A stretch of DNA of 64,000 nt from Candidatus Helarchaeota archaeon (GTDB lineage Archaea > Asgardarchaeota > Lokiarchaeia > Helarchaeales > RDOG01). The notes under the pieces were generated by a model. That model saw nothing but the letters and a program-made list of their open reading frames with translations. It did not search any database and was not told the DNA's origin. The DNA lies in NCBI GenBank assembly GCA_019058315.1, contig JAHPZH010000005.1:256001-320000 (forward strand), in the 5' to 3' direction. Shown here piece by piece: positions 27,122-54,434 of this stretch (positions are counted from its first letter, which is position 1; the number at the start of each line of letters is the position of its first letter). The position numbers and the translations under genes were made by a program.

Positions 27122-27130
27122 TTTTGTCGG
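27122..27130. promoter_or_regulatory. TTTTGTCGG box in the radA / luxE-like divergent intergenic region
   Basis: Same motif as upstream of polB2 and the RadA paralog. Confidence 0.45.
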
Positions 27131-27249
27131 AAATTTGTTAAATTTAGATCTTTGAAAAAAAATACTTTAAAAAAATATTCGTAATTAAAATTGAATTAAT
27201 ATCAATTGAAGAGATCAATATTAACTATTATGATTAAAGGCGAAAATAT

Positions 27250-28443
27250 TTGTCTAATTCAACTTTATTTGAAAATTTAAGGTCAGAGGTTATCAATACC
27301 TCAAAAGATTGTAAATTTTACCATGACATATGTGTTAAAGAAGAATATGACTTTGATCAAACGGTTAATGAGTCAAATTTAGAAGAAATTCCTTATATTA
27401 ATTGGTCTTATTTTAAAGCATCTAATGGACAATTTAGTAAATTACTTCGATTTCCATTTGACAAGTTAGCCTATTGGACTTTAAGCTCCTCCACTTCTGG
27501 AGATCCTAGTTTGGTTGGTAGAGGTCCTGAAGATATAGAAGTCTTTAAAAATAACTTTAAGCGAGTTTTTGAAGAATATTCAAACATGAGCCAGATAAAA
27601 CGGCTCATTTTATTTGCCCCACATATGAGATTTATGAATAGAATGCCTGGAGAGTGGGAGGGAAAGCGTGGGTTTCTTTTTTATCGTGATATTACCCAAA
27701 TTTGGGAAGATTATAAGATAGATTATTTATTGAAATTTAAATTTTGGAAAACAGTTGGTTACACTATAACTCATTTTAAACCCAAAGTATTTATTGAAAT
27801 AGACGGAAAATTACTTAAAAGAAGTCTTAATCAGGTAGAGAAGGAACATATTCCTGCATTAATTGCCAATTCTGCTCCTTTAATGTACAAAAATTTCATG
27901 GATTATCGAAAAAAACGTAAATCGGGCTTTAATATGGCTGAAACTTTTCGTGTTCAAACAGGAGGGGGAGGTTGGTCGGGAAAAAAAGGCCGAGTAAAAC
28001 TAGATTATGAGATAAATAAAGCGGATTTTATAGAACAACTATCTGATTTTTTTAATATTCCATTCGAAAATTTTGCAGATTTATATGGTGCAACGGAAAC
28101 ACCTATAGCATGTGGGGGTCATTGGAGTAAAAAATATGAGGATTTTATTTTGCATCTCGATAAAAGCAATGCGCGATTCGTTATCCGCTCAATTGGCACT
28201 CTAGAAAGAATTAAAAAAACCAAAGAACCAGGAGTCCTTGAAATATTAACACCATACGGTGTACAGTCATATGCAGGAGTCGCTATTTTATTAGATGACA
28301 TCATAGAAATATTAGATTTTAATAAGTGTAGTGAATGTGGTAGAGAAGGAATTATATTCAGAGTGGTTGGTAAATTAACCCCAGATATTGGAAAAGGATG
28401 TATTTCTTTTACTAATTTATTTCCTTTTGAAAAGGAAACTTAA
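27250..28443 (+). CDS. LuxE/PaaK-like acyl-protein synthetase
   Basis: SSSTSGDPS, TGGGGW.G, DLYGATE, ILLDDI and C-terminal GKGC. Confidence 0.75.
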   Translation: MSNSTLFENLRSEVINTSKDCKFYHDICVKEEYDFDQTVNESNLEEIPYINWSYFKASNGQFSKLLRFPFDKLAYWTLSSSTSGDPSLVGRGPEDIEVFKNNFKRVFEEYSNMSQIKRLILFAPHMRFMNRMPGEWEGKRGFLFYRDITQIWEDYKIDYLLKFKFWKTVGYTITHFKPKVFIEIDGKLLKRSLNQVEKEHIPALIANSAPLMYKNFMDYRKKRKSGFNMAETFRVQTGGGGWSGKKGRVKLDYEINKADFIEQLSDFFNIPFENFADLYGATETPIACGGHWSKKYEDFILHLDKSNARFVIRSIGTLERIKKTKEPGVLEILTPYGVQSYAGVAILLDDIIEILDFNKCSECGREGIIFRVVGKLTPDIGKGCISFTNLFPFEKET

Positions 28444-28449
28444 TCTTTT

Positions 28450-29922
28450 CTAATTTTGCCTTTGAAGATAATTGTAATATTGATTTAAACGATAATAGAC
28501 TTTAGCACCTCGTGTAATAGAAGAAAATGTTGGAATTTTTAAATCATTTAAGTTCTTAATAAGATGAATTCTAGTATCCTCAATTTCTAAATTGGTTTCA
28601 ATAATTCTCGGAATAATGCAAATTAATGGTTTTGTTATAAATCGTTTTATTTTTTTATAGGCTTTAACAATTTCTGTTCCATAATCAAATCTAGAGAGAC
28701 CAGAAGCTCTAATTCTTTCATTAAACCAATAGAATCGTTCTGGCATTTGATAAGTAATGAGTGCGTCAATTTTTGAGTCATTACTTACATATTTGATAAT
28801 TCTTCTGAAAATATCTGGAAAGAAACCCATACCTCCCATATCTACGGGATTTTTTACACTAGTATTTACATCAGGTAAGATCTTTGAGATTTTATTTTTA
28901 GTTTCCTCAGATAATTGGGGTAAATATAATCCTTCTTTCGCACAAGCATCTGTCATTTCCACCGAAGATCCTCCACCACCCACTATTATCCCGATATTTT
29001 TACCTTTAGGTAATTTATTGCCAAGCAAAAGACAACTATGCAAAACATCCCCCAATTCATCGATAGATTCAGTCAGGATAATACCAGTTTGTTTCATAAT
29101 GGATCGCCAAAGATTATTATCCATAGCTAAAGCTCCAGTGTGGCTAAATGCAGCTCTTTTTCCATCTTCAGTAACTCCACCTTTCCAAACAACAACTGGC
29201 TTTTTTATAGTTACCTTTTTAATTTTTTCATAGAAATTATTCCGTTTTACATCCTCAATATATACCCCAACTGCCCTAATTTCATTATCATTTCCAAAAT
29301 ATTCTATAAAATCTTGAATTGTTAAGTCACATTGATTACCTATACTTACGGTTTTGTTAAACTTTATTCCTTTTCCATTTGCTAACAAAGTGAATGTTCC
29401 AGCATGACCTCCGGATTGAGAAATAAATCCAACATTACCGATATCTCCTACCTCTTGTCCCGGCATAAAAGCTAATCTACTTTTATTACAGTGGATACCT
29501 AGACAATTTGGACCAATTAGTCTTATTTTACCCTTTTTAGCTATCTCTACTATTTCATCTTCCAATTTTTTATTACCCACTTCACTAAATCCTGAACTAA
29601 ATATAACAGCATATTTTACCTTTCCAGAACATTGTTTTAATATCTCAGGACATTTTCTCGCAGGAACAGCTATAATTGCTAAATCAATTAGTTCAGGTAC
29701 ATCCAATATTGTGGGAATTACTTTCCTTCCATATATTTCTGAGCGATTTGGATTAATATAATAAATAGTTTTAGGAAATTTTGAGTTATCTAAAGCGGTT
29801 ACGAAACCCCCACCTTTTATTGGTTGATTTGAAACCCCTATTATTGCTACATTATTAGGATAAAATAACTCATTCATATCTATCAAATTTATGCCTCTTG
29901 GTTTCATAACCAACATAACCAA
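28450..29922 (-). CDS. Acyl-CoA synthetase (ADP-forming), alpha subunit
   Basis: VAIIGVS, SSGFSE, IGPNCLG, SQSGG, SHTGAL (phospho-His) and NPVD. Confidence 0.93.
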   Translation of the reverse strand: MVMLVMKPRGINLIDMNELFYPNNVAIIGVSNQPIKGGGFVTALDNSKFPKTIYYINPNRSEIYGRKVIPTILDVPELIDLAIIAVPARKCPEILKQCSGKVKYAVIFSSGFSEVGNKKLEDEIVEIAKKGKIRLIGPNCLGIHCNKSRLAFMPGQEVGDIGNVGFISQSGGHAGTFTLLANGKGIKFNKTVSIGNQCDLTIQDFIEYFGNDNEIRAVGVYIEDVKRNNFYEKIKKVTIKKPVVVWKGGVTEDGKRAAFSHTGALAMDNNLWRSIMKQTGIILTESIDELGDVLHSCLLLGNKLPKGKNIGIIVGGGGSSVEMTDACAKEGLYLPQLSEETKNKISKILPDVNTSVKNPVDMGGMGFFPDIFRRIIKYVSNDSKIDALITYQMPERFYWFNERIRASGLSRFDYGTEIVKAYKKIKRFITKPLICIIPRIIETNLEIEDTRIHLIKNLNDLKIPTFSSITRGAKVYYRLNQYYNYLQRQN

Positions 29923-30032
29923 AGGAAAAATAAAAATTTTTCATTTAAATTGAAAAATTCGTTTTTATAAAAAAGAGGGGGATGGAGTTTCTTTGTTGAA
30001 CGCGATAATTTGAATAATTAGTTTTTAATTAT

Positions 30033-30164
30033 TTATACACTTGCTATACTATTTATCTCTACTAACTTTTTTTGATTATTTTTTAATTTACATTTATCGC
30101 ATTCCTTAACGAAGTTAAATTTCCGTTTTAATCCAAATTCTTCTCCACAGGTTAAACAAATCAA
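30033..30164 (-). CDS. Unannotated 43-aa CxxC...CxxC zinc-finger microprotein (MICLTCGEEFGLKRKFNFVKECDKCKLKNNQKKLVEINSIASV)
   Basis: TTG start with AGGAGA SD upstream; CLTCG and CDKC; T-rich terminator-like run downstream at about 29957-29964. Confidence 0.65.
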   Translation of the reverse strand: MICLTCGEEFGLKRKFNFVKECDKCKLKNNQKKLVEINSIASV

Positions 30165-30338
30165 AATATCGTTCTCCTATTTTTGTCGGATTAGACAATA
30201 GGATTTCTAATTGTAAGAATTGTATGAACTTCAAAATAAATCTCCCCTTTTTTTGTCGAGACCGACAAAAATATATTCTAAAATTAAATATTTCTTTAAT
30301 ACCAAAATAAGAAATTCGGTTTTTTGTCGAATTAACAA
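30162..30338. repeat. Three degenerate units with 70/71-bp period, each carrying CAAAATA...TTTTGTCG...ACAA
   Basis: TGTCG at 30184, 30254 and 30325; CAAAATA at 30162, 30232 and 30303; perfect palindrome at 30250-30271. Confidence 0.65.
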
Positions 30339-30411
30339 TTTTAGATAATAGGAAAGTCCATGTCCTTAACGCTCATTTAATCAATTGAATAGATGAATTA
30401 TTGATGATTAA

Positions 30412-30675
30412 TTAATTAATATTTTGTTTTGCTTTCTCTAATTTATCACAAGGCAAACAAGGACATTTTTTATTACGAACCGCCCGTTTGCAAACAAAAG
30501 GATACCCTTTACCATTCTTTATAATTTCTTCACATAATCTTATTTCATCTTCAGTCAAAGGTTGGGCATTTTTTTCCATTATATTCGGAAGTATATACGT
30601 TATAAAGATAATTATTACTATAATTACAGCGATAATAATTCCAATTATTATTAAAATAATCCAAAGGTCAGACAT
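30412..30675 (-). CDS. Small membrane-anchored Cys-rich protein
   Basis: N-terminal TM then C...C...CPCLPC; GGTGAGG SD. Confidence 0.75.
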   Translation of the reverse strand: MSDLWIILIIIGIIIAVIIVIIIFITYILPNIMEKNAQPLTEDEIRLCEEIIKNGKGYPFVCKRAVRNKKCPCLPCDKLEKAKQNIN

Positions 30676-30772
30676 TATATCCTCACCATTAAAAATTGAA
30701 TATATATGCTTTAAAAGTCTTTAGTTCAAGTTTAAGGTTCTGGTTGAAAAAATTCGATCTTTTATCACTTAT

Positions 30773-32983
30773 TCAAATCATATCAACCTTATACGGAACT
30801 AAGTTTCGAAATGCTCTCTTCAGTAATTTAGTGTACTCTTCCACATCACATCGACTGGAGTGTTTAAGTAAGTGGGATACAAGCACGCGATTTATTGGAG
30901 TTTTCGAATTTGCGTTGGTTATGATATATCTTACTTTTTGTCCAGGGTGAATTTCAATTCCTAGATTGGTGAGCTGCTTCGCAGCAATAGCTTGCCGTGA
31001 GTTGTTCTTATATTGATGCGGGTATCTAGTGATACGGGTGGTAATCAACAGATCTTCAGGGTTATAATCTCTATTTCGTATCTTATCAATATATTTTTTT
31101 AAAACCTTGTTGTAGACTTTCGGAACTAGTTGCTTAAATTCGAAACTGTTATTCGCGTGTTTTGCAAAATAGTCAATCATCTCACTCTGTGCGTCTTTCA
31201 CTATCTTAGGAGCATCATGTCTCCTCAGTTCTATACCCCTCACTTTCATCTTTCCGTTTTTGAACACACCATAGTAATGATTTAGAGTCCCAATTTCGGG
31301 ATTGGCTTGAGTTGGAAGGAAAACAATGAACTTGTAGCAACCATCATAATCCATAGGAATTTTGGTTTCCTGTTCTATTTCCTCACAATACTCTACATAT
31401 TTATCAATTGAATTATCAGTATATTCATCCTCATCCTGTAGCCAGAGTGAGTCCACAATACCATGGAGCACGTGAAGCTTTTTTTTGCGTGCAATTTCCG
31501 CAGCTCGTAAGAGGAGCTCCCGAGAATAAGCCGTTACTGCTTGATGCCCTTCCACACGTCCAAATCGAGCATTTCGGAACCCCATATAGCCAAAACACAC
31601 GACTAATATCCATTTTAGTGCACGCTGCCTCTTGGCATACACCTCGCTATTTGGGTTTTTTGCTTTGATTAGACGCTTGTATTGGAGTCTTTTCTCTAAT
31701 ACTGTTTTTAAGGAAATCGGTACGATACCCACACGCTTCTCACAAATTCGAAACTTGATTTGAGGCACAATTCTTGATGAATTTGGACAACATTTACAAA
31801 GAAGAGTCTCTGGTGAAATGTTATATTCTTTCATTAACGTTGGATACATACTTGTGAAGTCAAATTCATGGACATCATCAAAAATGCCGATTTTCGGTTC
31901 AAAGATAAAACCACCCTTGTCTGCTTCTAGTAGTGTGAGTGCAGGTTTGAAGCATTCTGCATTTCTTTTTACGGGAGGGATGAGTATATCGTTCTTTATT
32001 GCATTGTACATTTGAATCGCTTGAAGTGCACCCCCGATTGTTATCCTTGTGAGACGCTGTATGGGAATAAAGGAGACTCTTGCAACCTCTATGATCCCTT
32101 CTAGTCCTCCGCTCCAAAAATGACCAGCAACCTTATCCAGATGAAGCCTTCCTGTCAAATAAAACTGGGAAGGAGCCCTGTAATAGACTATTCCATAGGA
32201 AAAGTAATGGGAATCTCCACTCAAGATCATCTGGCATTTTTCTAATGAGTAATTGTTTCGTGAAAGGGTCAGAGACCCGTTCAATCCATGATATGACGCC
32301 CGTGCCACAAGATAAGGAAATAAGAAATTGTCTCCAGAATTGGAATAAATAATATCAGGGTCGAGTTTTCGAACTGTATCTGATAGAGCAATCAATTTAT
32401 CGACTTCGGTGGCTCCATCAATCGTGATATCTTCTTCGTTGAGGGTTACTTTTAGCTTTCGGATGGGGTCGTTCAAACTTGGAACTATGTAACTGGCACC
32501 AATATCCGCGTCGAGATGTAAAATACGAAAATCTGGCAAAGTATAATCAATTTGATCTTGCGAATCTGCCAGCTTGAGATTTAAATGCCCATTTTTTTTG
32601 GTATAATCGCCAAATGCAAGCGGAAAAAGATTGTTGTCATATAAAAACATCTGAGAAAGTGGAATATCTATGTTAAATACTGCACTGTTCTCAAGAGATA
32701 CAACATCCCTAACCGTTCTTTTAAAATCTCGCACATTTACCTTTACCTCTATCACTTTTTTCTTTCGCTTGTGATTTATGTTGACGTACTTGTCAAGGGT
32801 CTTTACATCTTCCACGCAATCATGATACCTTAATGCTCTTTTTAACTCGTATAAATTCTTGGAATACACATAAAATCTTGGATAATAATCAACGTGCATT
32901 TTCTCTACTTGACCGTTCGGTTTCTTCAACCAAAGCGCTATTCCTCGATTTTCCACGTTCAGATCCAACAACCATGCTTTCAA
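30773..32983 (-). CDS. polB2: Family B DNA polymerase, PolB2/Dpo2 group
   Basis: Motif A DFTSMYP, motif B QRALKWILVVCFGY, altered motif C HGIVDS, KVRGIELRR, and a degenerate exonuclease domain. Confidence 0.92.
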   Translation of the reverse strand: MKAWLLDLNVENRGIALWLKKPNGQVEKMHVDYYPRFYVYSKNLYELKRALRYHDCVEDVKTLDKYVNINHKRKKKVIEVKVNVRDFKRTVRDVVSLENSAVFNIDIPLSQMFLYDNNLFPLAFGDYTKKNGHLNLKLADSQDQIDYTLPDFRILHLDADIGASYIVPSLNDPIRKLKVTLNEEDITIDGATEVDKLIALSDTVRKLDPDIIYSNSGDNFLFPYLVARASYHGLNGSLTLSRNNYSLEKCQMILSGDSHYFSYGIVYYRAPSQFYLTGRLHLDKVAGHFWSGGLEGIIEVARVSFIPIQRLTRITIGGALQAIQMYNAIKNDILIPPVKRNAECFKPALTLLEADKGGFIFEPKIGIFDDVHEFDFTSMYPTLMKEYNISPETLLCKCCPNSSRIVPQIKFRICEKRVGIVPISLKTVLEKRLQYKRLIKAKNPNSEVYAKRQRALKWILVVCFGYMGFRNARFGRVEGHQAVTAYSRELLLRAAEIARKKKLHVLHGIVDSLWLQDEDEYTDNSIDKYVEYCEEIEQETKIPMDYDGCYKFIVFLPTQANPEIGTLNHYYGVFKNGKMKVRGIELRRHDAPKIVKDAQSEMIDYFAKHANNSFEFKQLVPKVYNKVLKKYIDKIRNRDYNPEDLLITTRITRYPHQYKNNSRQAIAAKQLTNLGIEIHPGQKVRYIITNANSKTPINRVLVSHLLKHSSRCDVEEYTKLLKRAFRNLVPYKVDMI

Positions 32984-33047
32984 TCTTGGAGCCTCTTATG
33001 TTCGCTTCTCATTGATCAAAAGATCATAATCTCTTAAAATTAGAAAC

Positions 33048-33084
33048 GGAGGGAGAGATAACTGAAAGAAAGTTAATTTGTCGG
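33048..33084. promoter_or_regulatory. Composite element upstream of polB2: GGAGGGAGA...TGAAAG...TTTGTCGG (as read on +)
   Basis: Same three blocks in the same order at 54393-54434, upstream of the RadA paralog. Confidence 0.55.
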
Positions 33085-33193
33085 TTTGCTTTTTGATTAA
33101 AATATTGAAAAATAGAATAAGTTTAAGGAGAATTTTTTCCCAGTTAAATTGTCAATTATACTATTAGAATTCAATTTTAAAGGATTGATTAAC

Positions 33194-33694
33194 ATGACAG
33201 ATATTGAAGAAGTAGATAAAAGATTTGAGTCAAAAATTAAAGAATTAAAAGAGATTCTACCAGAACATTATAAGAAAGATATGAGCTCACCGAGAAATTG
33301 CGCTGCTTGGACTGTTGCAAGTATTTTAGATATTTTAGGAATTGATAACCTTAACATTATTAACATGGCTACACCCTTAGCCGTAGTTGGTGGAAATTGT
33401 GGCGCATTGGAAGGCGGCTTAATGATGGTGGGCTTAATTCTCGGGAAAAAAGGAAAAAAACCCTTTAATCATTTGGTTGCAACTATAGAAGGATTAAAAT
33501 TTGTGAAAGCATTTGAAAAAGAGTTTGGTTCAATTAAATGTAAAGATTTAACCGGTCTTGATTTATTGACTGAAGAGGGACAAAAAGCTTATGTTAATGA
33601 AAATATCTGGGAACAAAAATGCTATAAACATGTTATTGGTGCAGTAAAGACCATTAGAGATTTATATAAACGAAAAATTGCTAAAATAATTTAA
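33194..33694 (+). CDS. C_GCAxxG_C_C family putative redox protein
   Basis: NCA, CGALEG, FGSIKCKDLTG and KC; start ATG 33194. Confidence 0.85.
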   Translation: MTDIEEVDKRFESKIKELKEILPEHYKKDMSSPRNCAAWTVASILDILGIDNLNIINMATPLAVVGGNCGALEGGLMMVGLILGKKGKKPFNHLVATIEGLKFVKAFEKEFGSIKCKDLTGLDLLTEEGQKAYVNENIWEQKCYKHVIGAVKTIRDLYKRKIAKII

Positions 33695-33766
33695 TAAGAT
33701 TATTATTAAATACAAATTTTCAATTATTTATTTAAAAATTTAATAGACTTTAATGGACGAATAATT

Positions 33767-34285
33767 TTGGTCACAGTTGAGGAAGTAGAGAGACATTTTG
33801 AACTAAAAATTAAAGAATTAAAAGAAAATTTACCTTTGAAATATAAAAAGGAAAAAATTCAACCCCGAAATTGTGCTGCTTGGACTATGGCTAGTTTATT
33901 AGATATTCTGAACATTGAAGATACCAAAATTAATACTAATTTTATAAATATGGCATCCCCTTTAGCTGGAATTACTAGAATTTGTGGGGCTATTGGGGCT
34001 GGATTAATGATTATAGGATTAATTGTAGGAGAGAGGGGAGAAAGAGAAATTCCTCAATGGACAGCGGCAGCCGAGGGGATGAAGTTTGTAAGGCGTTTTG
34101 AAAAAAAATTTGAATCAATACAATGTCCTGTTCTAACAGGTCATGATTTACTAACATCAGAGGGAATGAAAGCATATATAAAGGAAGATGTTTGGGGAAA
34201 AAAGTGCTACTTGCATGTAACAAACGCAATTGAAATAATCGGTAGATTATATAAAAAAAAGATTGTAAATATCATTAAAATTTAA
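33767..34285 (+). CDS. C_GCAxxG_C_C family putative redox protein (tandem paralog)
   Basis: NCA, CGAIGA, IQCPVLTG and KC. Confidence 0.85.
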   Translation: MVTVEEVERHFELKIKELKENLPLKYKKEKIQPRNCAAWTMASLLDILNIEDTKINTNFINMASPLAGITRICGAIGAGLMIIGLIVGERGEREIPQWTAAAEGMKFVRRFEKKFESIQCPVLTGHDLLTSEGMKAYIKEDVWGKKCYLHVTNAIEIIGRLYKKKIVNIIKI

Positions 34286-34929
34286 TCTTTAGATTCTAAC
34301 TTTTTAGCTTCCTTTTCGGCTTCTATCTTTTTTGCCTCTTTCAATATTAGAATACCAATTATAGCACCTATGATGAATGGTATCGTTAATTGGAAAGGGA
34401 ATAGCCAAAAAGGCAGTAATAATGCGGGTGGGGGGTGTTGTTTATTTGGATCCCAAGTTCCTTGAATTACAGTTCTTAAATAGTAAGATATGGCAGCAGT
34501 TAACCAAGTATAAGCCCATGCTATAAATGTAGCAATACCTAACCATTTCGCTCGTTGTTTTCGATACAAATAAGATTTTTTGAAATAAGATAGATATGTT
34601 TTAAGTGTAATAATAACTACTACCGCAAAGGATGGCCAAACATGAATATTAAAAGACGGATCTTCTATTTCAAATGGTGGTGTACCAAATAATATCCCTC
34701 CAATAAAGCCCATCATTCCAGCCCACAGACCGAGATAGTATAGCGTCGTAGCAAAGCCACCAAATGCTCGATGTGATCTGAATATTACATCATTTAACTT
34801 TAAAAGAGCAAGTTTTTTCTTATGAAATCCAATCCAGTAACCAGTGAAGATTTGGACTGTTGCACAAAGGCAGCCTAGCAAGGTGACAATCGTATTATAC
34901 TCAGCTAATGCTATTGCCATAAAATACAC
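34282..34929 (-). CDS. Membrane protein, possibly heme-b binding (cytochrome b561/DUF6529-like)
   Basis: About 5 TM with His at helix starts (FRSHRAFG, FNIHVWP). Confidence 0.55.
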   Translation of the reverse strand: MYFMAIALAEYNTIVTLLGCLCATVQIFTGYWIGFHKKKLALLKLNDVIFRSHRAFGGFATTLYYLGLWAGMMGFIGGILFGTPPFEIEDPSFNIHVWPSFAVVVIITLKTYLSYFKKSYLYRKQRAKWLGIATFIAWAYTWLTAAISYYLRTVIQGTWDPNKQHPPPALLLPFWLFPFQLTIPFIIGAIIGILILKEAKKIEAEKEAKKLESKD

Positions 34930-35059
34930 CTCTTAAAATATTTACAATTTTTCCCGGTTTATTGACACTTAACATAAGTAATTTTAAAATTTAATATTAT
35001 TTTTATTAATTTTATAAATAAAAAAATTTTTTGGACATTCTAATTCATTTTTTCTATTT

Positions 35060-35962: not shown

Positions 35963-36475
35963 GTGAAGAAAGTGGAAAAAAATAATAAAGAAATTTTAGA
36001 AAAAGCATTTAAATTAGGTCAAAAATACGAAAAAAGAAATACTGGATGTGCTCAAACAGCTATTGCAGCAATATTTGATGCTTTAGATATTTGGAATGAT
36101 GATGTATTTAAAGCTGCAAGCGGACTAGCTGATGGTTTAGGATTAACAGGAGATGGAAGCTGTGGTGCACTTGTAGGAGCTTCCATGGTAATTGGTTATT
36201 TATTCGGTAGGGAGAAAAAAGATTTTAACAATCCAATGAAACCTATGAAGTCTTATGAACTGGTTAAAAAATTACATGACCAATATGTAGAAAAATATGG
36301 CACATGTCGCTGTTATGATGTTCAAAAATCTCTTTGCGGAAGAACATTCGATTTATGGGATCCTAAACAAATGCAAGAAGCTTTTCAGTCAGGAATGTTA
36401 GAACATTGTTCCAAACTTGTTGGTACTATTGCACAAATGGCTACAAAAATAATTTTAGAAGAAAAAAAGAGTTAA
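35963..36475 (+). CDS. C_GCAxxG_C_C family putative redox protein
   Basis: GCAQ, GSCGALVGA, YGTCRC and HC. Confidence 0.9.
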   Translation: MKKVEKNNKEILEKAFKLGQKYEKRNTGCAQTAIAAIFDALDIWNDDVFKAASGLADGLGLTGDGSCGALVGASMVIGYLFGREKKDFNNPMKPMKSYELVKKLHDQYVEKYGTCRCYDVQKSLCGRTFDLWDPKQMQEAFQSGMLEHCSKLVGTIAQMATKIILEEKKS

Positions 36476-45925: not shown

Positions 45926-46606
45926 TTAGATTTTAAATGACTCAATTTTATTTTTTCTGGATGAAATTCTTTCAGACTCTATATATATGTCTATTTTTAG
46001 TTTTGGTATCTTTAATATTTTAAGAATAGGAATTATGAATTTTAAATTGCCAAAGTATTTTGGAGATTTTCTATCATTTTCTATAAGTACAAATTCAAAT
46101 TTTGCTAGATTTGAAATAATTTCTTCAACTTTTTCTGAATTAATTTTGACTTTTTTTGCCAGTTCATTTAAAAAGATTCCAGGTTCAAGCAAGATATTTT
46201 CTAGAATTTTAAAATTCTTTGAATCCCTTATTAGAACTATTTTCTCATCTAAAATCGGATCGATGTAAGAATTAAAATAGATAATTTTGTTCTTTATTCT
46301 ATTTTTTCTAATAAAGTCAAATTTTTCCAGCATCTTTAGGTGCCAAATGGCTAATTGAGGGTTTATGTTTAAGTTTTCTCGAATCTCTCTCTGATGAGAA
46401 CCGGGATTTTTGGATATGTATCTATAAATATTTTTTCGTTTAATATTTTGAAGAACGGAATCCTTTGTTAGTTTAGTGCCTCTGATTATAATTTTTTTAG
46501 CGATTAACTGATAAATCGCTTCATTAATTTTTTTTTCACTTTCAATTTCATTTTTGAATATTTTTAGAGTTTTAATTGATACATTATAAAGTTCTTCAAT
46601 TGACAA
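45926..46606 (-). CDS. Winged helix-turn-helix transcriptional regulator
   Basis: RKNIYRYISKNPGSHQREI...WHLKMLEKF, with a second HTH at ILLEPGIFLNELAKKV. Confidence 0.85.
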   Translation of the reverse strand: MSIEELYNVSIKTLKIFKNEIESEKKINEAIYQLIAKKIIIRGTKLTKDSVLQNIKRKNIYRYISKNPGSHQREIRENLNINPQLAIWHLKMLEKFDFIRKNRIKNKIIYFNSYIDPILDEKIVLIRDSKNFKILENILLEPGIFLNELAKKVKINSEKVEEIISNLAKFEFVLIENDRKSPKYFGNLKFIIPILKILKIPKLKIDIYIESERISSRKNKIESFKI

Positions 46607-46750
46607 TGGACCTTTTTTTACTAGTTTCTTAGCAATTTCTAAGACTGATTCCTCAACTGGAGGTTTTTTCGTTATTTTAAATGAAATCCTTCCCCAATTT
46701 ACTTTATTATATGTCTAATAACAATATAATTTATTTCCCTTATATCTTTT

Positions 46751-47425
46751 TTGAAGATGAAAATTCTTTTTAAAAAAGTAGAGAAAGAAATATTGAAAAT
46801 GCAAAATGATAGATTATTAAGAATCAGTGGGATTGTCGCTTCACTACTTGGATTAATATTAATTTTATTTGGAAATATTAAAACTCCAGCAAATTTTAGA
46901 ATTTTGGGTGATATTATTCAAAATATCTTGTTATTTAATATTATATTACTGTTATTTTTACCTGAACAAAGAAAGTTGGAGAATGCACTCATTTTGGGTT
47001 TATTTACGATGATCTTTGATTTCTTACTAGAAACTATTGCAGTTTATCTCAATTGGTGGTATCCAAAGGGAGGGTTTCAAGCCCGACCCTTTTTAATAAT
47101 ACCTTTAGAGATGGTGATTAGTTTTATGCTTATAGGGACTACGGTAGGAATAATTCTAGGTATTCCCGAAAAAATTCGAAATATGGACTTTAGACCTTTT
47201 AATTGGTTGAAATTTTTTGTAAAAAATCCAAGATATGATTTGATGTGGAGAATTTTATTTATTTTCGTTAATGCTGTAGTAGGAACTAATGGGGATTACA
47301 CTGCGGGATACGATATTTGGGTTCCAGGGCCAAATTGGCACTGGATTTATACGTTTTTTGTTTGGTTTGGCGGCGGGATGATCATTTTATCGGTATTTTA
47401 CTACCTTGAAAAAAAAAGGGAATAA
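46751..47425 (+). CDS. Hypothetical membrane protein
   Basis: About 6 TM; FDFLLET...WWYP pattern; start likely ATG 46799. Confidence 0.75.
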   Translation: MKMKILFKKVEKEILKMQNDRLLRISGIVASLLGLILILFGNIKTPANFRILGDIIQNILLFNIILLLFLPEQRKLENALILGLFTMIFDFLLETIAVYLNWWYPKGGFQARPFLIIPLEMVISFMLIGTTVGIILGIPEKIRNMDFRPFNWLKFFVKNPRYDLMWRILFIFVNAVVGTNGDYTAGYDIWVPGPNWHWIYTFFVWFGGGMIILSVFYYLEKKRE

Positions 47426-48334
47426 TTATTCAACAAAATTAATCTTGGGTTTATTTCTAGGAACTAGATACTTGAAATTTGTATCTTTTCTACCTAAAGC
47501 TAAACAATAACGGGCTTTATGATCTTTAGGAATTCCTATTAATTTTCTGACCTTTCTTGAATAATATATAGCAAACATTAGCATGCCCAAAGAGACAGTC
47601 CCAAGACCCATTGCTTCTGCCATGAGCATTAAATATGCCGCTGTAAGTGTAGTATTTTCAATAATCATGGTATTTACAGTATATTTTTTATTTGCTGTAA
47701 TAATGATAAGAGCTGGGGCACCCCAAAATAATACATCTTTTCCACCTTTTTCCATTTCTGCAAATATTCTCTTCATTGGGTCAATCGTTGAAAGCATTGC
47801 GTTAACCATATTTGCTGGGACAAAATTCTCTAGTATTTTGACCATTTTTTCTGGATCCTCTGGAAGTGAATTAACAATCATTGAAATTTCTTTTACAATA
47901 GCATTTCTGATTTCTTTAACTTTCTCGCCAGTAATTACCGTGAATTCAGATGGTTGGTCATTGTGTCCGGAGGGAGCATATCTTGCAGCATCGATTAGGC
48001 GTTCCAATTCAGATTTTGATATCGGATCAGGTTTGAATAATCTTGTAGATCTTCTAGACCTCATAAAATTCATGAGAGTTTCGGGATCTATTTTAAATTT
48101 AGGAATAGGTATCTTTTCAGATATATCATAACGGGCAATAGTAACTGCATCTTCGGGACATACACCCATACAATGTGCACATCTAATACATTGCGTCTTC
48201 GCCAGTTTACTTACCAAAATGCTTCCATTTTTTTCATATAAAGTTGCTGTAGGACAAGTCCTTACACATTCCATACATTGAATACATTTGTCTTGATCAA
48301 TTGAAACAGGACTGGTTTCACTCATATAATTCAT
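47426..48334 (-). CDS. Nitroreductase family protein with N-terminal 2x[4Fe-4S] domain
   Basis: CIQCMECVRTCP, CIRCAHCMGVCP, RSRRSTRLF, APSGHNDQP and AEAMGLGT. Confidence 0.93.
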   Translation of the reverse strand: MNYMSETSPVSIDQDKCIQCMECVRTCPTATLYEKNGSILVSKLAKTQCIRCAHCMGVCPEDAVTIARYDISEKIPIPKFKIDPETLMNFMRSRRSTRLFKPDPISKSELERLIDAARYAPSGHNDQPSEFTVITGEKVKEIRNAIVKEISMIVNSLPEDPEKMVKILENFVPANMVNAMLSTIDPMKRIFAEMEKGGKDVLFWGAPALIIITANKKYTVNTMIIENTTLTAAYLMLMAEAMGLGTVSLGMLMFAIYYSRKVRKLIGIPKDHKARYCLALGRKDTNFKYLVPRNKPKINFVE

Positions 48335-48355
48335 TCCTTCTTATTATATTTCATT

Positions 48356-48952
48356 TTAATTTTTATACATACCACGTAAACGAACTATATCCGCAAAAGC
48401 GGTTCCGTGAGGTATTCCCAACTGTGCTACATATTGGGCGAAAGTACCTACACTCTGGTCGGTATATTTATCCAAAAGAGCATTTAATCCTGCATTAAAC
48501 TCAGCCACTTTTTTCATATGGTCATTACTTCCTTGTTTCCCATCCTCAATGCCCACCATACATTCAATAAACAGTTTTCGTACGGCTATTACTTCCTCCT
48601 CAAATGTCTTTTCCACTTTATGCTCTTTGAAATTTGCTACTGCATAATACCATCGCCCCTTCTTGATTATGAAATCAACCTTGCCATCTTCTTCGGCGAG
48701 TTTCAAAGCTAGGGCTGGAACTTCTTCTTGTTTAACATCTTCGATAACCCCTCGGTCTCCCCACCTTTTAAATTTTCGAGTATCGTCCATATATTTTCCC
48801 ACTGCATATAAATTTGCTTCCGCCACTAATGTAAAATCCGCCTTATGCCATTGTACACGTTCATATTCCTCGTTTATTTGTACTTGTTTAACACCTAATG
48901 AGTCAAGTTTTTTTTGGATTTCATCTCTTGGAAAATAAGTTATATCAACCAT
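48356..48952 (-). CDS. Hypothetical soluble protein
   Basis: About 198-aa ORF starting MVDITY; no family recognised. Confidence 0.75.
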   Translation of the reverse strand: MVDITYFPRDEIQKKLDSLGVKQVQINEEYERVQWHKADFTLVAEANLYAVGKYMDDTRKFKRWGDRGVIEDVKQEEVPALALKLAEEDGKVDFIIKKGRWYYAVANFKEHKVEKTFEEEVIAVRKLFIECMVGIEDGKQGSNDHMKKVAEFNAGLNALLDKYTDQSVGTFAQYVAQLGIPHGTAFADIVRLRGMYKN

Positions 48953-49025
48953 AAAAAAAAAGGAGATTTCTGAAATTAAAATTGAATGCAATACTATAGA
49001 AAAAACATATTTAGATTGTTGAATG

Positions 49026-49793
49026 CTAACTTATTAATCCTAACATATATGGGATTGCCAAATATGGAACATAAGCTAATACAATCTCTACAACTACATC
49101 ATAAGCAAGTGCTCCGAATTCAATTAATGGAGGGGCTCGACTCAAGAAAGGATATAAACCAACTTCAATCCAGCGTGTTCCAGCTAACCATTCCGATAAT
49201 GTCCAGACGCTTATAAATGTTAACATTACAAATAATAAATAAAATCCTCTTTTTCGCTGTTCTGGTTCCGCTCTAATAAAGAAAATTATATTTATTACAA
49301 TCATTAAACTCATAAAAATCACTGCTATAATTGGAAACATATCTCTTATTGAAGGTACAAATAATCCAACAAATGGGAATTTGACGCTATCCCTAAGAGT
49401 GCTAAACACCAAAACTAAAAGTATAACTACAAATATTATGATTGAAGATTTCCTTGTTTCTTCATCCCTAATTTTGTCAGCTCCAAATGTTCCCAATACT
49501 GCCACTGCACTTCCTTCTGAAATTCCTTGTAATGGGGCGGAAATCCATAAGGGAATCTCGATTCCAAATAGGTATTTGGCCTGTATTATACGAGTGCCAC
49601 CTATTTGTAAAGACACCTCAACTAATGACCAAATTATTGTTCCAAATAGAAAGATCCAAAAATAATCTAGTCTTTCATTCTTTTTCCAATCATAAATTAC
49701 TAGAATAACTATGATGATAGATAGAAATAATTTGGTATTCCAATTAGTGCCAAAACTGCCACCTCTAATCATAAAAATACTTTCAATAACCAT
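49026..49793 (-). CDS. Hypothetical multi-pass membrane protein
   Basis: About 7 TM; two similar W..(V/S)E....GTR.I segments. Confidence 0.75.
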   Translation of the reverse strand: MVIESIFMIRGGSFGTNWNTKLFLSIIIVILVIYDWKKNERLDYFWIFLFGTIIWSLVEVSLQIGGTRIIQAKYLFGIEIPLWISAPLQGISEGSAVAVLGTFGADKIRDEETRKSSIIIFVVILLVLVFSTLRDSVKFPFVGLFVPSIRDMFPIIAVIFMSLMIVINIIFFIRAEPEQRKRGFYLLFVMLTFISVWTLSEWLAGTRWIEVGLYPFLSRAPPLIEFGALAYDVVVEIVLAYVPYLAIPYMLGLIS

Positions 49794-49942
49794 ATTCTCA
49801 CTTCTAGATATTGAATATAATTCCAGCTGAACACTTTGAATATATTTTTAATTATTTTTACAATCAATTAAATAATCTATGGAACTATTTTGAGAATTTT
49901 ATTATTTTTCATATTTCGTTTAATTTAAATTTGAGATGTGTA

Positions 49943-51316
49943 ATGATGAAGGATGATTTGAAATCTCAAATAAGCAAATTTTTTTACCCAAAATCTGTTG
50001 CCATTATTGGTGCATCCCGTAGTCCCACTAAATTTGGGAACTTGTTTCTTAGATCTTTTATAACTAATAAATTCCCTGGTAAAATTTATCCGATTAATCC
50101 TAAAGCAGATGAAATTCTAGGAGTTGAAGCTCATAAAAATTTGATTGATATTCAAGATCCTATAGATTTAGCAATTATTACAACTCATCCTGCTGAAAAT
50201 ATAAAGTTGGTCAAAGATTGTGTTAAAAAAGGTATTGAAGCAATAATTATATTCTCTGCAGGTTATGCTGAAATTGGGGAAGCTGGAAGAGAGAGGGAAA
50301 AAGAGTTATTATCAATCATAAAGGGAAAAGCTAGAGTAATAGGTCCAAATTGTGTTGGAATTCATTCTGCTCCTGGTAGAGTTTCTTCCTTTCCTGCAAC
50401 CTCTTTCGATTTAGATGCCGAAGTGGCCGTATTATCTCAAAGCGGATATTTAACATCCCTTTTAACAAGAATTTTAACACTTCGTGGAATTCCTGTAACA
50501 TTTGCAGTTAGTTTAGGCAATTCTATTGATTTGAATATCTGTGATTTTCTTGAATATTTTAAAGAGGAAAATAATACGAAATATATAGGAATGTATCTGG
50601 AGGGTGTTTCTCAAGGAGACCGGTTTATAAAATTATGTAAAGACATGAGGGGCAAAAAACAATTAATAATTTGGAAACCGGGAAGAACTAATATAGGAAA
50701 AAAAGCTATATCAACCCATACAGCAAGTATTACTGGGGAAGATAAGATATGGAATGCTATTTTTAGTCAATATAGTATATTCCGAGTTAATTCAGCCGAA
50801 GAAATATTGAATCAAGTTATCGCATTAAAATTTTCAGAAACTATGAAAGGACCAAAAGTTGGTATTGTTGGTTCTCAAGGGGGATTAACCGTAACTACTG
50901 CTGAAAATTGCGAATATTATGGTATTGAATTAGCTAAATTAACTGATCACACTAAGGAACAACTAAGAAAAGCAATTCCGGAATTTGGCACTAGCGTTAA
51001 TAATCCAGTAGACATTTCAATTGCTGCAGCGATGAATTCAAAGCTTTATGCAGATGCTGGTAAAATAGTACTTAAGGATAAGAATGTAGACATTCTGTTA
51101 ATTAATGGAACTTGGATGTTAGACAGTCTATTCATAAAATATTTATTAAGTCTTAGAAAAGTAAACGATAAACCTATTTTTTTTATAGAACCATCAATTC
51201 CAGAGAGATTAAGATCTTATAGAAAACTCTTAAACAATAAAATTGGGGTTACTTTTACTTCATTTTCATTTTTAAGATTTTTAAAAAGCGCAATTGATTC
51301 CAAATTTAAAATGTAA
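49943..51316 (+). CDS. Acyl-CoA synthetase (ADP-forming), alpha subunit
   Basis: PKSVAIIGAS, SAGYAE, IGPNCVG, SQSG, THTAS and NPVD; start ATG 49943. Confidence 0.92.
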   Translation: MMKDDLKSQISKFFYPKSVAIIGASRSPTKFGNLFLRSFITNKFPGKIYPINPKADEILGVEAHKNLIDIQDPIDLAIITTHPAENIKLVKDCVKKGIEAIIIFSAGYAEIGEAGREREKELLSIIKGKARVIGPNCVGIHSAPGRVSSFPATSFDLDAEVAVLSQSGYLTSLLTRILTLRGIPVTFAVSLGNSIDLNICDFLEYFKEENNTKYIGMYLEGVSQGDRFIKLCKDMRGKKQLIIWKPGRTNIGKKAISTHTASITGEDKIWNAIFSQYSIFRVNSAEEILNQVIALKFSETMKGPKVGIVGSQGGLTVTTAENCEYYGIELAKLTDHTKEQLRKAIPEFGTSVNNPVDISIAAAMNSKLYADAGKIVLKDKNVDILLINGTWMLDSLFIKYLLSLRKVNDKPIFFIEPSIPERLRSYRKLLNNKIGVTFTSFSFLRFLKSAIDSKFKM

Positions 51317-51465
51317 AATTCAAAAAATTTTACCGATTTTAAAATATTATAAGTCAAATATATCATAAATTAGTCAAGAAATCTTATTTTAGTTAATGAG
51401 TTTGTGAAAAAAATTCTTATTACTTTTCTTAATTGTATTTTAAAAAGAATGTGAAGTTGATTAAA

Positions 51466-52794
51466 ATGACTGAAAGAAAAAACGTAGTTGTAGTTTCTGC
51501 AAAAAGGGCTCCAATGGGAAAAAGTTCTTGGAATCCCGCTGCTAAACCAGGAATTTTTTATTGGGCTAATGCTCAAGACTTTGGTGGACAGATTTTTAGA
51601 AATATTTGGGAAGATGCTAAGAAGAAAGCACCTGATCTCAAGCCAGAGGAGCTTGAAGCGATTGCGTATGGTTGTTCAGGGCAGTATGGAGCACAATCTG
51701 GAGATATAGCTCGGCTTTCCGCAGTGGTCCAAAAATCAAAAGATTTTTACCCGGTATTTGGGGTTACTTGTGATTCCTACTGTAATGCTGGAACTTCTGC
51801 AATACAATATATTAATAACATGCTAGCCCTCGGTCAAGGTGAAGTGGGAGTAGCCGGGGGACAAGAATTACTATCTCTTTTCCCTTTAGGCTCTTCAATG
51901 ATGGCGCACATACAAGATAAGAAAACAGGGAAACCCACTCATAAAAGAGTACTTGAAATGCATAAATTATTCATGAAACGAACATTAGGTCTTGGACCTG
52001 CAGGTGAAAAAATTGCTTGGATGTGGAATTTAAAGAGAGAAGATTTAGATGAATTTGCCGCTCGTAGTCACCGGAATATGATTAAAGTTCAAAGACAAAA
52101 AGATAAATACGAACCTAGAATAATGCCAATAACTATGCCGGTCTGTAATGAAAAAGGCAAACCAATAAAAGATCCTGAAACAAGAAAAATAAAAACAATT
52201 ACGCATACAGTTGATGAGACTCCACGAGCTGTTTATTTAGATAATCCTGAAAAAGCAATGGAAAAAATGAAAAGCCTTAAAGCACGATTTAGTGATGGAG
52301 AACATTTTCCCCCAAAGTACATACATGCTGGAAACGCTAGTGCGATATCGGATGGTGGAGCTGCGATGCTTTTAATGACCGAAGAAAAGGCATCACAATT
52401 AGGCGCTAAACCTCTTGCTAGAATTGTTGATATCTCTAATTCAGCATCGGATCCTTCAGTTGTTCTTACAGGACCTATTCCAGCTACAAAGAAAATATTA
52501 AAAAGAAATGGATTAAAATTTGATGATTTTGATTTGATACACATTAACGAGGCGTTTGCGAGTGTCCCATTTGTAGTCATGCACGAATTAGGAAGTAATG
52601 CTTTAACTGATGAGCGTTTAAATACGTCGGGGGGTGCTATAGCTGGGGGACATCCGATAGGAGCATCTGGAGTTGCTTGGGCTGTGGAGTTAATATGGGA
52701 AATGATCCATAATAAGAAAAAGCTTGGACTTTTCACCTTGTGTGCTGGGTTTGGCAATGGAATGTCTGTGGTCTTTGAAAATATGCAAATCTAA
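51466..52794 (+). CDS. Thiolase (acetyl-CoA C-acyltransferase)
   Basis: SYCNAG catalytic Cys, NEAFA, GHPIGASG and LCAGFG. Confidence 0.93.
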   Translation: MTERKNVVVVSAKRAPMGKSSWNPAAKPGIFYWANAQDFGGQIFRNIWEDAKKKAPDLKPEELEAIAYGCSGQYGAQSGDIARLSAVVQKSKDFYPVFGVTCDSYCNAGTSAIQYINNMLALGQGEVGVAGGQELLSLFPLGSSMMAHIQDKKTGKPTHKRVLEMHKLFMKRTLGLGPAGEKIAWMWNLKREDLDEFAARSHRNMIKVQRQKDKYEPRIMPITMPVCNEKGKPIKDPETRKIKTITHTVDETPRAVYLDNPEKAMEKMKSLKARFSDGEHFPPKYIHAGNASAISDGGAAMLLMTEEKASQLGAKPLARIVDISNSASDPSVVLTGPIPATKKILKRNGLKFDDFDLIHINEAFASVPFVVMHELGSNALTDERLNTSGGAIAGGHPIGASGVAWAVELIWEMIHNKKKLGLFTLCAGFGNGMSVVFENMQI

Positions 52795-52890
52795 CATTAA
52801 ATAAAATTTCTACTCTTTTTTTAAACAATTTTTTTTAACCATTTAAAAAAAATTAAGAGATTTTGAAAGATATTTCTCTTTATACCAAAT

Positions 52891-53082
52891 TTATGTATAA
52901 TAAGGTAGGGTAGGTTTATCAAATTCCAGGCCTATAAGAATTTCATAAGTTTCACAACTTGGACATTTGACATCATTTAGAGGGGTTTCGCCCTCTAATC
53001 CAAAAAATATATTGCATTTTATACAATAAAATGACAGCGTTGGTTTTAAATCCGTTTTTTTTAATTCAATTTTTTCCTTCAA
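52891..53082 (-). CDS. Small zinc-finger protein (63 aa)
   Basis: CIKC ... CPSC; GAGG SD upstream of TTG. Confidence 0.65.
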   Translation of the reverse strand: MKEKIELKKTDLKPTLSFYCIKCNIFFGLEGETPLNDVKCPSCETYEILIGLEFDKPTLPYYT

Positions 53083-53241
53083 ATTTTTACTAACCTCTTC
53101 TATAATTTTTTTTCATTTTTTTATAGAATTTAAGGTCAAACTTCAATAATTCTAACATTTTCAGCCATTACTTTAATTATATCATTTTGTCGATTTAAAT
53201 TTTATTAATTTAATTAAATTAATAACTTTAACATTTTTCTT

Positions 53242-53517
53242 TTATTTTGGTGTTTCCGATTCTAAATTTTTTAATTTTTGAACCTCATCCTTCAGTTCTT
53301 GAATTTCTTTTTGTAATTCGAGTAAAATAGAGATGAAGAGAACCTCAGATACCAGTGGTCGTGAGATATAACCTCCAGCATCTGCTCGTAAGCGTGCCGC
53401 ATTCATAATTTTGTCGAAGTTCTTTTTATCTGCTGGACGCAAGGCTCGTCGAAATTCTGCCCAACTCGCAATTTCGTGTTCCAATATCATTCTAAACGTA
53501 GGTATTGTTCGTCCCAT
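53242..53517 (-). CDS. Small helical PolB2-associated protein (arCOG07300-like)
   Basis: MGRTIPTFR...W.EFRRALR..D...FD; its ATG overlaps the upstream stop (TAATG at 53515-19). Confidence 0.8.
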   Translation of the reverse strand: MGRTIPTFRMILEHEIASWAEFRRALRPADKKNFDKIMNAARLRADAGGYISRPLVSEVLFISILLELQKEIQELKDEVQKLKNLESETPK

Positions 53518-54236
53518 TAAGGTTCCCCCAGCCAAAAGTTGAGATTTCTTTGTAGAGGTATCGGGGTTGATTTCCACATGATATTTTTTTGGAAACGACC
53601 TCCTTTGAGTTTATAGAAATCTATACGATTTTGATAATCTAATACATGAACAATTACATCAGCAAAATGACTCATAATCTTGCCTCCTGCTGGTTTAAAC
53701 CGTGAGTTCTGAGCATATCCTGTAGAAACTACAACAACCGCATTTTTTTCAAGCGCAAATTTTTTAAGCTTTCCGAGAATTTTTAAGAGATCTCCAAAGC
53801 AAGACTGTGTTTTGGGGTCGAACATACCAGTCAATCCCGAAATGAGAAGAAGTCGTGCCTCTAATCCTTTCATTTTATTTATGACAATATCGACCGTTTG
53901 TTCCCAAGTGAAGAATCGGGAGATGAGAATACGTGATAAGACATGACGAGGGTTTAGTTTTTTAGTGACGGATTTTTGGGAGATGAAGTAGGGATCAAAG
54001 GAAACATCACCGTCCACATAGATTACTTTCGAATTAAGACCATTAAGTGATCGCGGTAGTTGAGCTGTAACTGATAGCGTTAGAAAAATCTGTCTAATTA
54101 CAGATCTTTGCCCATATAAAAGATAAAGAGTTCTGGGCATAAATCCTCCATCAAGTAAGTCGTCTAATTCTGCATTTTCACTGGTCAATTTAGTTATGTT
54201 TTTTTGTCGATTGTATTCGTGTGAAGCGGAGTTCAT
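53517..54236 (-). CDS. RadA/RecA-fold paralog with degenerate Walker A and C-terminal PIP-like motif
   Basis: LDDLLDGG, LYGQRSVIRQ (no GKT), VIYVDGDVSFDP, GGKIMSHFAD and QRNLNFWL. Confidence 0.85.
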   Translation of the reverse strand: MNSASHEYNRQKNITKLTSENAELDDLLDGGFMPRTLYLLYGQRSVIRQIFLTLSVTAQLPRSLNGLNSKVIYVDGDVSFDPYFISQKSVTKKLNPRHVLSRILISRFFTWEQTVDIVINKMKGLEARLLLISGLTGMFDPKTQSCFGDLLKILGKLKKFALEKNAVVVVSTGYAQNSRFKPAGGKIMSHFADVIVHVLDYQNRIDFYKLKGGRFQKNIMWKSTPIPLQRNLNFWLGEP

Positions 54237-54290
54237 TTCATTACCTCAACAGCACATATTAACTTAAACTACAATATTTGAGTTAAAATT

Positions 54291-54434
54291 CCGACATTTC
54301 GACAGCCTCGGGTAGGAATTTGCCAACATTCGATCAATTCCTCTAGAATTTTAACACCATAGAGAGATACCTTTTGGAAAATATTAATTGTAGGAGGGAG
54401 ATCTGGAAAAGTGAAAGTATTGAATTTTTGTCGG
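54291..54434. promoter_or_regulatory. Upstream region of the RadA paralog: CCGACATTTCGACA, an AGGAATT/AATTCCT hairpin and GGAGGGAGA...TGAAAGT...TTTTTGTCGG
   Basis: Three TGTCG half-sites and block order shared with the polB2 upstream region. Confidence 0.55.

Follow-up and report, generated by a model that had tools for sequence, protein, structure and literature searches.

A short intergenic element shared by DNA-repair, histone and biosynthetic promoters in a Helarchaeota genome and found at cdc6 in a sister family

The window analysed here is a stretch of 64,000 nucleotides (nt), C2:256001-320000, from the 5.8-Mb assembly of a Candidatus Helarchaeota archaeon, a 94%-complete genome with roughly 30% GC. 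It carries the genes of RadA, of a family-B DNA polymerase (polB) and of a RadA paralog, and the word TTTGTCG lies upstream of each of them. The element is referred to as Box A and is written in full as TTTTGTCG(G/A) or, on the opposite strand, as CCGACAAAA(A)T. Box A is a real, shared and non-random cis element to which a protein would bind, and it probably serves as the operator of a regulon linked to chromatin, DNA synthesis or growth, not of one specific for DNA damage. Some of the same promoters contain another element, Box B, which reads ACTTTC-N-CTCTC and abuts the TATA box. Genes were taken from our own crude whole-genome calls of open reading frames (ORFs), which leave 11% of the genome as intergenic DNA. 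For comparison 14 relatives from four families (G001-G014) were used, of which G001 belongs to the same family; f4 denotes the sister family. The genes and the intergenic copies of Box A in the window are the following.

18512-19501: hisG; the box at 18264 lies upstream of this gene only
25938-26942, minus strand: RadA
27250, plus strand: LuxE-like synthetase gene, divergent partner of radA
30033-30164, minus strand: candidate ORF for a 43-aa CxxC...CxxC Zn-ribbon protein, whose GGAG and TTG start abut the first box of the cluster
30773-32983, minus strand: family-B DNA polymerase of the PolB2 type; DTD, YxDTD and SLYPS motifs were looked for and none was found
33149, plus strand: C_GCAxxG gene, divergent partner of polB
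52891-53082, minus strand: 63-aa Zn-ribbon gene
53242-53577, minus strand: 111-aa protein, in an operon (53242-54236) with the RadA paralog
53517-54236, minus strand: RadA paralog with Rad51 fold, without the Walker A GKT
54660-56864, plus strand: unit ending in a His_biosynth gene, divergent partner of the RadA-paralog operon
18264-18270, plus strand: Box A TTTTGTCGG, about 248 nt upstream of hisG
27123-27129, plus strand: Box A between radA and the divergently oriented LuxE-like gene
30182-30329: cluster of four Box A copies (30182, 30252 and 30323 on the plus strand, 30263 on the minus strand)
33077-33083, plus strand: Box A, 35 nt upstream of the TATA-like box of polB (33033-33042, minus strand)
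53186-53192, plus strand: Box A, about 100 nt upstream of the 63-aa Zn-ribbon gene
54427-54433, plus strand: Box A, 38 nt upstream of the TATA-like box of the RadA paralog

In total, TTTGTCG occurs 13 times in the window, compared to 5.3 +/- 2.6 times in dinucleotide-preserving shuffles, of which 1 in 100 reaches 13. Nine copies are intergenic (18264, 27123, 30182, 30252, 30263 on the minus strand, 30323, 33077, 53186 and 54427). A preliminary description of this DNA had named these places and taken the word for an operator upstream of minus-strand repair and Zn-ribbon genes. All nine copies could be found, most of its coordinates being one base lower (preceding T included), and the copy it had given at 18263 as the only other intergenic one starts at 18264. 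The radA gene, the PolB2-type polymerase, the RadA paralog and the two small Zn-ribbon ORFs are present on the minus strand as it had stated, and so are TTGTCG-GATT-AGACAA at 30183-30198 and CCGACA/CGACAG at 54291/54300. Four coding copies were missing from its list: 53410 in the 111-aa gene, 54203 in codons 10-12 of the RadA paralog, and 57265 and 63073, both on the minus strand.

The cluster at 30182-30329 is located upstream of the 43-aa ORF and downstream of the polB2-like gene. Its plus-strand boxes are spaced 70 and 71 bp apart, and Tandem Repeats Finder called no array for them. The only inverted pair of Box A, at 30250-30271, had been read as a perfect palindrome; its 9-nt arms are indeed perfect, and the 4-nt spacer AGAC is not palindromic. 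The box at 27123 lies 146 nt from the TATA-like box of radA (26969-26977) and 36 nt from the TATA-like TTTAAAAAAATA (27167-27178), which faces the LuxE-like gene. The box at 33077 is also found 66 nt upstream of the C_GCAxxG gene 33149, and that at 54427 also 227 nt upstream of the plus-strand unit 54660-56864. Since these three boxes lie equally upstream of plus-strand genes, their assignment to the repair genes is not certain. The public records listed for 26000-34000 were DNA contigs of sediment metagenomes, with no RNA among them.

Genome-wide, TTTTGTCG was counted 73 times in intergenic DNA, whereas 18.8 copies were expected from an order-3 Markov model (z 12.5). This z value ranks first among about 14,000 intergenic octamers, above a tRNA T-loop word. 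The 7-mer TTTGTCG has 408 genomic copies, 92-94 of them intergenic. The intergenic share amounts to 32% for CCGACAAA and 76% for CCGACAAAWWT, compared to 0-10% for six control words with one letter changed. About 3% of all upstream regions in the genome carry an exact box. The upstream regions of the three repair genes in the window have in common the sense form CCGACAAA and, independently, CTCCCTC; any GC-containing 8-mer is common to 0.08% of random triples of upstream regions. Except for three or four repeated pairs, the flanks of Box A differ from site to site, so that the element is not a repeat family.

Box A stands 17 to about 190 bp upstream of TATA and is used in both orientations. 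In tandem gene pairs 20 boxes are in sense and 28 in antisense orientation, and 34 sites fall into divergent regions. A transcription factor B recognition element (BRE) has a fixed orientation and a position directly upstream of TATA, and Box A has neither. Owing to the variable distance and the two orientations, a BRE, an initiator element and a T-run terminator are all excluded, and with them the earlier proposal of a BRE variant read by an alternative TFB. The variable distance is likewise not that of a classic promoter-occluding repressor. Box A is mostly single and asymmetric, in contrast to the palindromic operators of the LexA type that overlap the core promoter.

The neighbouring genes were annotated for every intergenic TTTGTCGG site and for most TTTGTCGA sites. 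Outside the window, neighbours with a role in DNA metabolism comprise PolD DP2, a TopoVI-B-like protein, an XPD-like helicase, a DEAD/ResIII helicase, a radical-SAM+HhH protein and an Ssb-like OB protein. Among the biosynthetic neighbours are PurL (two sites, together with PurQ), PurC, PurH, PurM and HisG. Further neighbours are a PAN-like ATPase, two Eco57I-type methylases and many unrelated genes. A link to chromatin first emerged when two small box-bearing genes were identified as histones. In total, an exact box occurs in the 350 nt upstream of 6 of the 10 histone genes (PF00808) of this genome, at 31-65 nt from the TATA box. No Box A was found upstream of MCM, NurA or the Orc1/Cdc6 paralog that bears Box B. 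Taken as a whole, the content of the regulon is dominated by histones, cdc6, purine genes and unrelated genes, not by repair genes.

Two individual promoters and one helicase deserve a description of their own. The histone promoters at C5:1227303 and C5:404064 have a common layout of 100 nt, (C)GACAAAAATCAT, about 30 nt, TTTGTCG(G/A), about 31 nt and TTTATATA, which represents a divergent box pair. The XPD/Rad3-type helicase gene C5:324881-326914 has Box A 60-66 nt upstream; no ortholog was found at E<=1e-60 in 20 relatives, and it may be an accessory or acquired gene.

Conservation separates these targets. In G001-G014 the box is found upstream of 16 of 28 histone genes, nearly always as sense TTTTGTCG, and in 13 aligned sense cases an TTTAAATA/TTTATATA TATA box follows at a distance of roughly 40-110 nt. 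In G010 the box precedes at least 4 of 6 histone genes, and about 6 of the 32 eleven-mer matches in that genome are located upstream of histone genes. Upstream of orc1/cdc6, CGACAAAA is found at about -190 in 6 of 8 f4 genomes, and G002 has TTTTTGTCGG. A reading as an origin recognition box (ORB) was rejected at this gene, where there is a single box and no inverted multi-copy array. Control genes from the same genomes gave 0/13 for PolD DP2, 1/9 for SSB, 0/8 for hisG and 0/12 for purH; the hisG box of the window thus has no counterpart in these 8 relatives. The PurL orthologs are mostly not comparable because they stand behind purQ in an operon; in G001, purL keeps GCGACAAAATT. The conserved core of Box A thus consists of histones plus cdc6.

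For the repair genes, conservation upstream of orthologs is partial. The polB ortholog of G001 keeps CGACAAAAA directly upstream of ACTTTC, and the operon of RadA paralog, 111-aa gene and polB has Box A upstream in G010 and G032. The radA orthologs of five relatives and the RadA paralog of G001 are without it.

These results bear on the proposal made in the preliminary description that TTTGTCG is an SOS-like damage operator, through which a dimeric regulator or an alternative TFB co-induces radA, polB2, the RadA paralog and the Zn-ribbon microproteins. The rarity of an 8-mer common to three upstream regions, the helicases, the radical-SAM+HhH protein, the SSB and the TopoVI-B-like protein among the genomic neighbours, the persistence of the box at polB of G001 and at the RadA-paralog operons of G010 and G032, and the perfect inverted arms at 30250-30271 all speak for it. 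As in the bacterial LexA/SOS system, a recombinase, an alternative polymerase and a RecA-like accessory gene have a short promoter word in common, and one copy forms an inverted repeat. Unlike in that system, most sites stand alone, face either way and are placed upstream of the core promoter, away from TATA or start site, and histone and biosynthetic genes make up the larger part of the regulon. Conservation is highest at histone genes and cdc6, the box is also present at four purine-gene loci and at hisG, and the radA orthologs, the RadA paralog of G001, NurA and the Orc1/Cdc6 paralog bearing Box B lack it. A self-cleaving repressor was searched for as well. No S24 peptidase (PF00717) was matched in the genome, in agreement with the earlier statement that archaea generally lack LexA/SOS, and PF01726 (LexA_DNA_bind) gave one 27-bit match to a weak, generic winged helix-turn-helix, a model that also matches archaeal control genomes. 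Furthermore, the three repair-gene sites of the window are shared with unrelated plus-strand genes. An SOS-like operator is for these reasons unlikely. No specific intergenic word is commoner in the genome than this one, which is present at every repair locus of the window and conserved at histones and cdc6, and reading it as a marker of a repair regulon was an over-reading that is corrected here. In line with the earlier statement that no operator is known from Asgard archaea, neither a regulon nor an operator nor a motif was found for them in the literature.

The biosynthetic neighbours suggest another possibility, namely that Box A serves here as the operator for a PurR-like nucleotide sensor, through which purine and histidine synthesis would be tied to DNA synthesis in this genome. 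PurL with PurQ (two sites), PurC, PurM, PurH, HisG and the unit ending in a His_biosynth gene carry the box, and purL of G001 keeps it. Box A also resembles the B. subtilis PurBox AWWWCCGAACWWT; both are CCGA-containing, AT-flanked words upstream of several purine genes. The two differ in that the PurR N-terminal domain PuR_N (PF09182) has no match in the genome, that the conserved targets are histone genes, and that the purine association is confined to this genome plus purL of G001. The purH and hisG orthologs lack the box throughout, and the histone and cdc6 targets would be left unexplained. A nucleotide sensor of this kind is accordingly given little weight.

A third possibility is a eukaryote-like programme. 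Box A might be bound by an E2F/DP-like winged-helix protein or by an Orc1/Cdc6 paralog and thereby define a programme resembling the eukaryotic G1/S regulon, which comprises histones, cdc6, polymerases, a Rad51 homolog and nucleotide synthesis in both cases. The genome encodes an E2F_TDP protein of 168 aa (C3:929701-930207, plus strand; PF02319, 39-40 bits) with a coiled coil and an RRRVYD motif, which agrees with RRXYD. Like the eukaryotic E2F/DP sites (TTTSGCGC), Box A has a T-run followed by a CG-containing core, and TTTGTCGG shares 6 of 8 positions with TTTGGCGC. RRXYD motifs contact the GCGC core, and Box A has TCGG in its place; moreover, MCM is without a box. Within the order, 6 of 7 genomes encode a member of the E2F_TDP family, but none was found among 31 genomes of f4 or among the 34 of f4 and f5 together, and f4 is the family that best keeps the box at histones and cdc6. 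On these phyletic grounds a link of E2F to Box A was rejected. The Orc1-2 protein of Sulfolobales acts as a transcription factor (PMC6061795), and the targets of the Asgard E2F homologs are not known (PMC7617429). Together, an E2F/DP-like or Orc1/Cdc6-type binder appears improbable.

The promoters of polB and of the RadA-paralog operon have a further element in common, ACTTTC...CTC(T)CCCTCC, located 3-5 nt before the TATA-like box. It is present in the window as follows.

26984-26991, minus strand: CTCCCTCT block, a partial Box B 6 nt upstream of the TATA-like box of radA, without a TTTC half at the standard spacing
33048-33073, minus strand: Box B of polB, sense ACTTTC TTTCAG TTAT CTCTCCCTCC, ending 5 nt before the TATA-like box
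54393-54418, minus strand: Box B of the RadA-paralog operon, sense ACTTTC ACTTTTCCAGAT CTCCCTCC, ending 3 nt before the TATA-like AATTAATATT (54380-54389)

Order-level relatives keep Box B, not TTTGTCG, upstream of polB, the RadA paralog, radA and cdc6. Several class-level relatives keep it upstream of the RadA paralog and nurA. The radA paralogs of G004 and G002 have ACTTTT/ACTTAT-N6-CTC(C/T)C(T) beside the TATA box, and a Box B-like element is found upstream of the f4 RadA paralogs. Within the genome, the pattern A[CG]TTT[CT]-N4-16-CTC[TC]C[TC] occurs in 18 upstream regions, compared to 8 for the reversed control, among them those of NurA, an Orc1/Cdc6 paralog, a DEAD/ResIII helicase and a PLD-like nuclease. 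There are two Orc1/Cdc6 paralogs in the genome, and Box B stands in the promoter of one of them, C6:65440.

The consensus of the S. islandicus damage response bound by Orc1-2 is AATAGTTTCRGWDTACTCWS (PMC6061795). A scan with it revealed one match of 20/20, located 128 nt upstream of the PLD nuclease, and one of 19/20. The reversed control gave none with 19/20 or better, and about 0.001 perfect intergenic matches are estimated by chance. Forms resembling this DNA-damage-response element (DDRE), AATACTTTCAGT.TACTCTC at TATA, are found at C3:1298245 and upstream of C1:143329, C6:65440 and C5:744713. The window sites themselves reach 14-15/20 in a hand alignment, their poorer fit being due to a deviating spacing.

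Box B thus shares with the DDRE of Sulfolobales (ANTTTC within AATAGTTTCRGWDTACTCWS; Sun et al. 2018, PMC6061795) the arrangement ACTTTC...CTCTC beside TATA. Dpo2, an inactivated-looking PolB2, is a target in both, as predicted here from promoters, and NurA, an Orc1/Cdc6 paralog, a helicase and a PLD nuclease are additional sites of Box B. The differences are that this likeness concerns Box B and not TTTGTCG, and that the spacing in two promoters of the window deviates from the consensus. The similarity is a strong resemblance and does not amount to proven homology. Judged by its sequence, Box B appears to be a better candidate than TTTGTCG for a possible damage regulon, which may cover the polB2-like gene and the RadA paralog. 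The matching promoters point to co-regulation of these two transcription units, which is very likely on this basis. From the earlier proposal of a co-regulated set, this part is retained, with the damage signature fitting Box B instead of TTTGTCG.

The genes concerned form a module in the sister family. In all 24 f4 loci in which the 111-aa gene was detected (L006-L030), polB follows immediately downstream of it, and a RadA paralog is often nearby; in the window the module is split 20 kb apart. With an inactive-looking polymerase and a paralog lacking Walker A, the layout looks like an archaeal counterpart of ImuA-ImuB-DnaE2, by analogy. The promoters of the f4 111-aa/polB units (L009-L030) share AAAAAT(C/T)AG(A/T)AAA(T/A)TT, about 10 nt before a TATA box of the TTCTTTAAA type.

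Several results weigh against Box A as an operator of a regulon and against the relationship proposed for Box B. For the intergenic 7-mer, 30-51 of the 92 copies are expected from Markov models of order 1-4 trained on intergenic DNA, and with a maximum-order model the excess is only 92 vs 69, because the sub-words of the 7-mer carry the signal. Convergent regions contain 11 of 93 sites and show no clear depletion, about five of the 11 belonging to small genes missed by the ORF caller. In the relatives, whole-genome counts of TTTTGTCG and AWWTTTGTCGR show no excess over the reversed word; these counts say little because they are dominated by coding DNA. The sites without conservation (PolD, SSB, hisG, purH) may be neutral or lineage-specific, and the gene assignments of Box A rest on crude ORF calls. 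Concerning Box B, scoring with fixed spacing gave as many matches of 15-17/20 in the reversed control, so that scores up to 17/20 are non-discriminating, and the resemblance consists of one perfect site and weaker sites.

Some of these results would also suit a compositional or generic origin of Box A, as a BRE variant, the remnant of a T-run terminator or the relic of a repeat. The word starts with a T-run in DNA of 30% GC, a good part of its 7-mer copies is expected, and many sites are not conserved. On the other side, it is the first-ranked octamer after Markov correction, and the one-letter control words have no intergenic bias. The same promoters keep it across the class, its flanks are diverse, and its distances and orientations exclude a BRE or a terminator. 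A generic origin is therefore highly improbable.

The reading we favour, an operator of a chromatin, DNA-synthesis or growth-linked programme, can be outlined as follows. Box A would be the site of a sequence-specific transcription factor, usually a single asymmetric upstream element that acts in either orientation. Its distance of 17 to about 190 bp from a canonical TATA box further downstream would fit an upstream factor better than a repressor occluding the core promoter. At the level of the class its conserved targets would be histone genes, with orc1/cdc6 added in the sister family. In this larger genome the element would have spread to about 50 places beyond what composition predicts; the added places would comprise purine and histidine genes and several genes of DNA metabolism, including the three repair loci of the window. 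Box B would additionally tie the polB2-like gene to the RadA-paralog operon. It is the histone and cdc6 core together with the wider biosynthetic spread that leads to a regulon linked to chromatin, DNA synthesis or growth and not specifically to damage. We infer the binding of a protein, the direction of regulation and the physiological signal from the positions, neighbours and conservation described above. That Box A is such an operator and that Box B is, at the same time, a true homolog of the crenarchaeal Orc1-2 element is a tentative combination.

A comparison can further be drawn with the cell-cycle boxes of Sulfolobales (aCcr1 box, TFB2 regulon), which mark division genes and act in repression (bioRxiv 10.64898/2026.09.06.749720). 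In both cases a short promoter word, sometimes in several copies per promoter, defines a set of genes of the chromosome cycle; sequence and targets differ. How replication, chromatin and repair genes are controlled in Asgard archaea bears on the origin of eukaryotic cell-cycle transcription (PMC7617429). If the favoured reading is true, Box A would offer a cis-regulatory handle, the first in Asgard archaea, on transcription of a cell-cycle-like kind, and as a short, conserved DNA bait it could be used for fishing the factor from cultured Lokiarchaeia. If the homology of Box B is true, an archaeal DNA-damage circuit would predate the split of Thermoproteota and Asgard archaea. Judging from the promoter likeness, the Orc1-2 damage circuit, of which no examples outside Sulfolobales are known, may have a much greater age and a wider distribution.

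The small genes next to Box A in the window are of different standing. For the 43-aa ORF 30033-30164 no tblastn homologs were found in the own genome or in the polB loci of relatives. The 63-aa Zn-ribbon protein has three paralogs with 55-62% identity (C2:67177-67335, C10:42612-42761 and C3:950287-950400) and hence belongs to a real small-gene family. A tblastn search of the small proteins of the window against the polB, radA and RadA-paralog loci of G001 and the order-level relatives gave no match. Furthermore, three paralogous C_GCAxxG_C_C genes (putatively redox-active) are clustered beside polB at 33149-33694, 33767-34285 and 35963-36475, and a gene for a winged-helix regulator (HTH_24, HVO_0163-like; 45926-46606, minus strand) adjoins the gene of a 3048-aa surface protein.

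Other promoter words were observed in the genome. Words of the CGCGC/GCGCG type are located upstream of MCM, an RPA-like OB protein, two histone genes and purQ, and also upstream of EF-1alpha, L11 and SRP54. The third most over-represented intergenic octamer is TGCGCATT (29 vs 5.8), which often occurs as ATGCGCA-N~20-TATATATAAAG-N~8-TTTGCG and looks like operators bracketing the TATA box. Example sites are C6:232333, C6:304395, C7:1368, C7:42015, C10:11209 and C11:793484, and the octamer is also found after the TATA box of the Orc1/Cdc6 gene that bears Box B.

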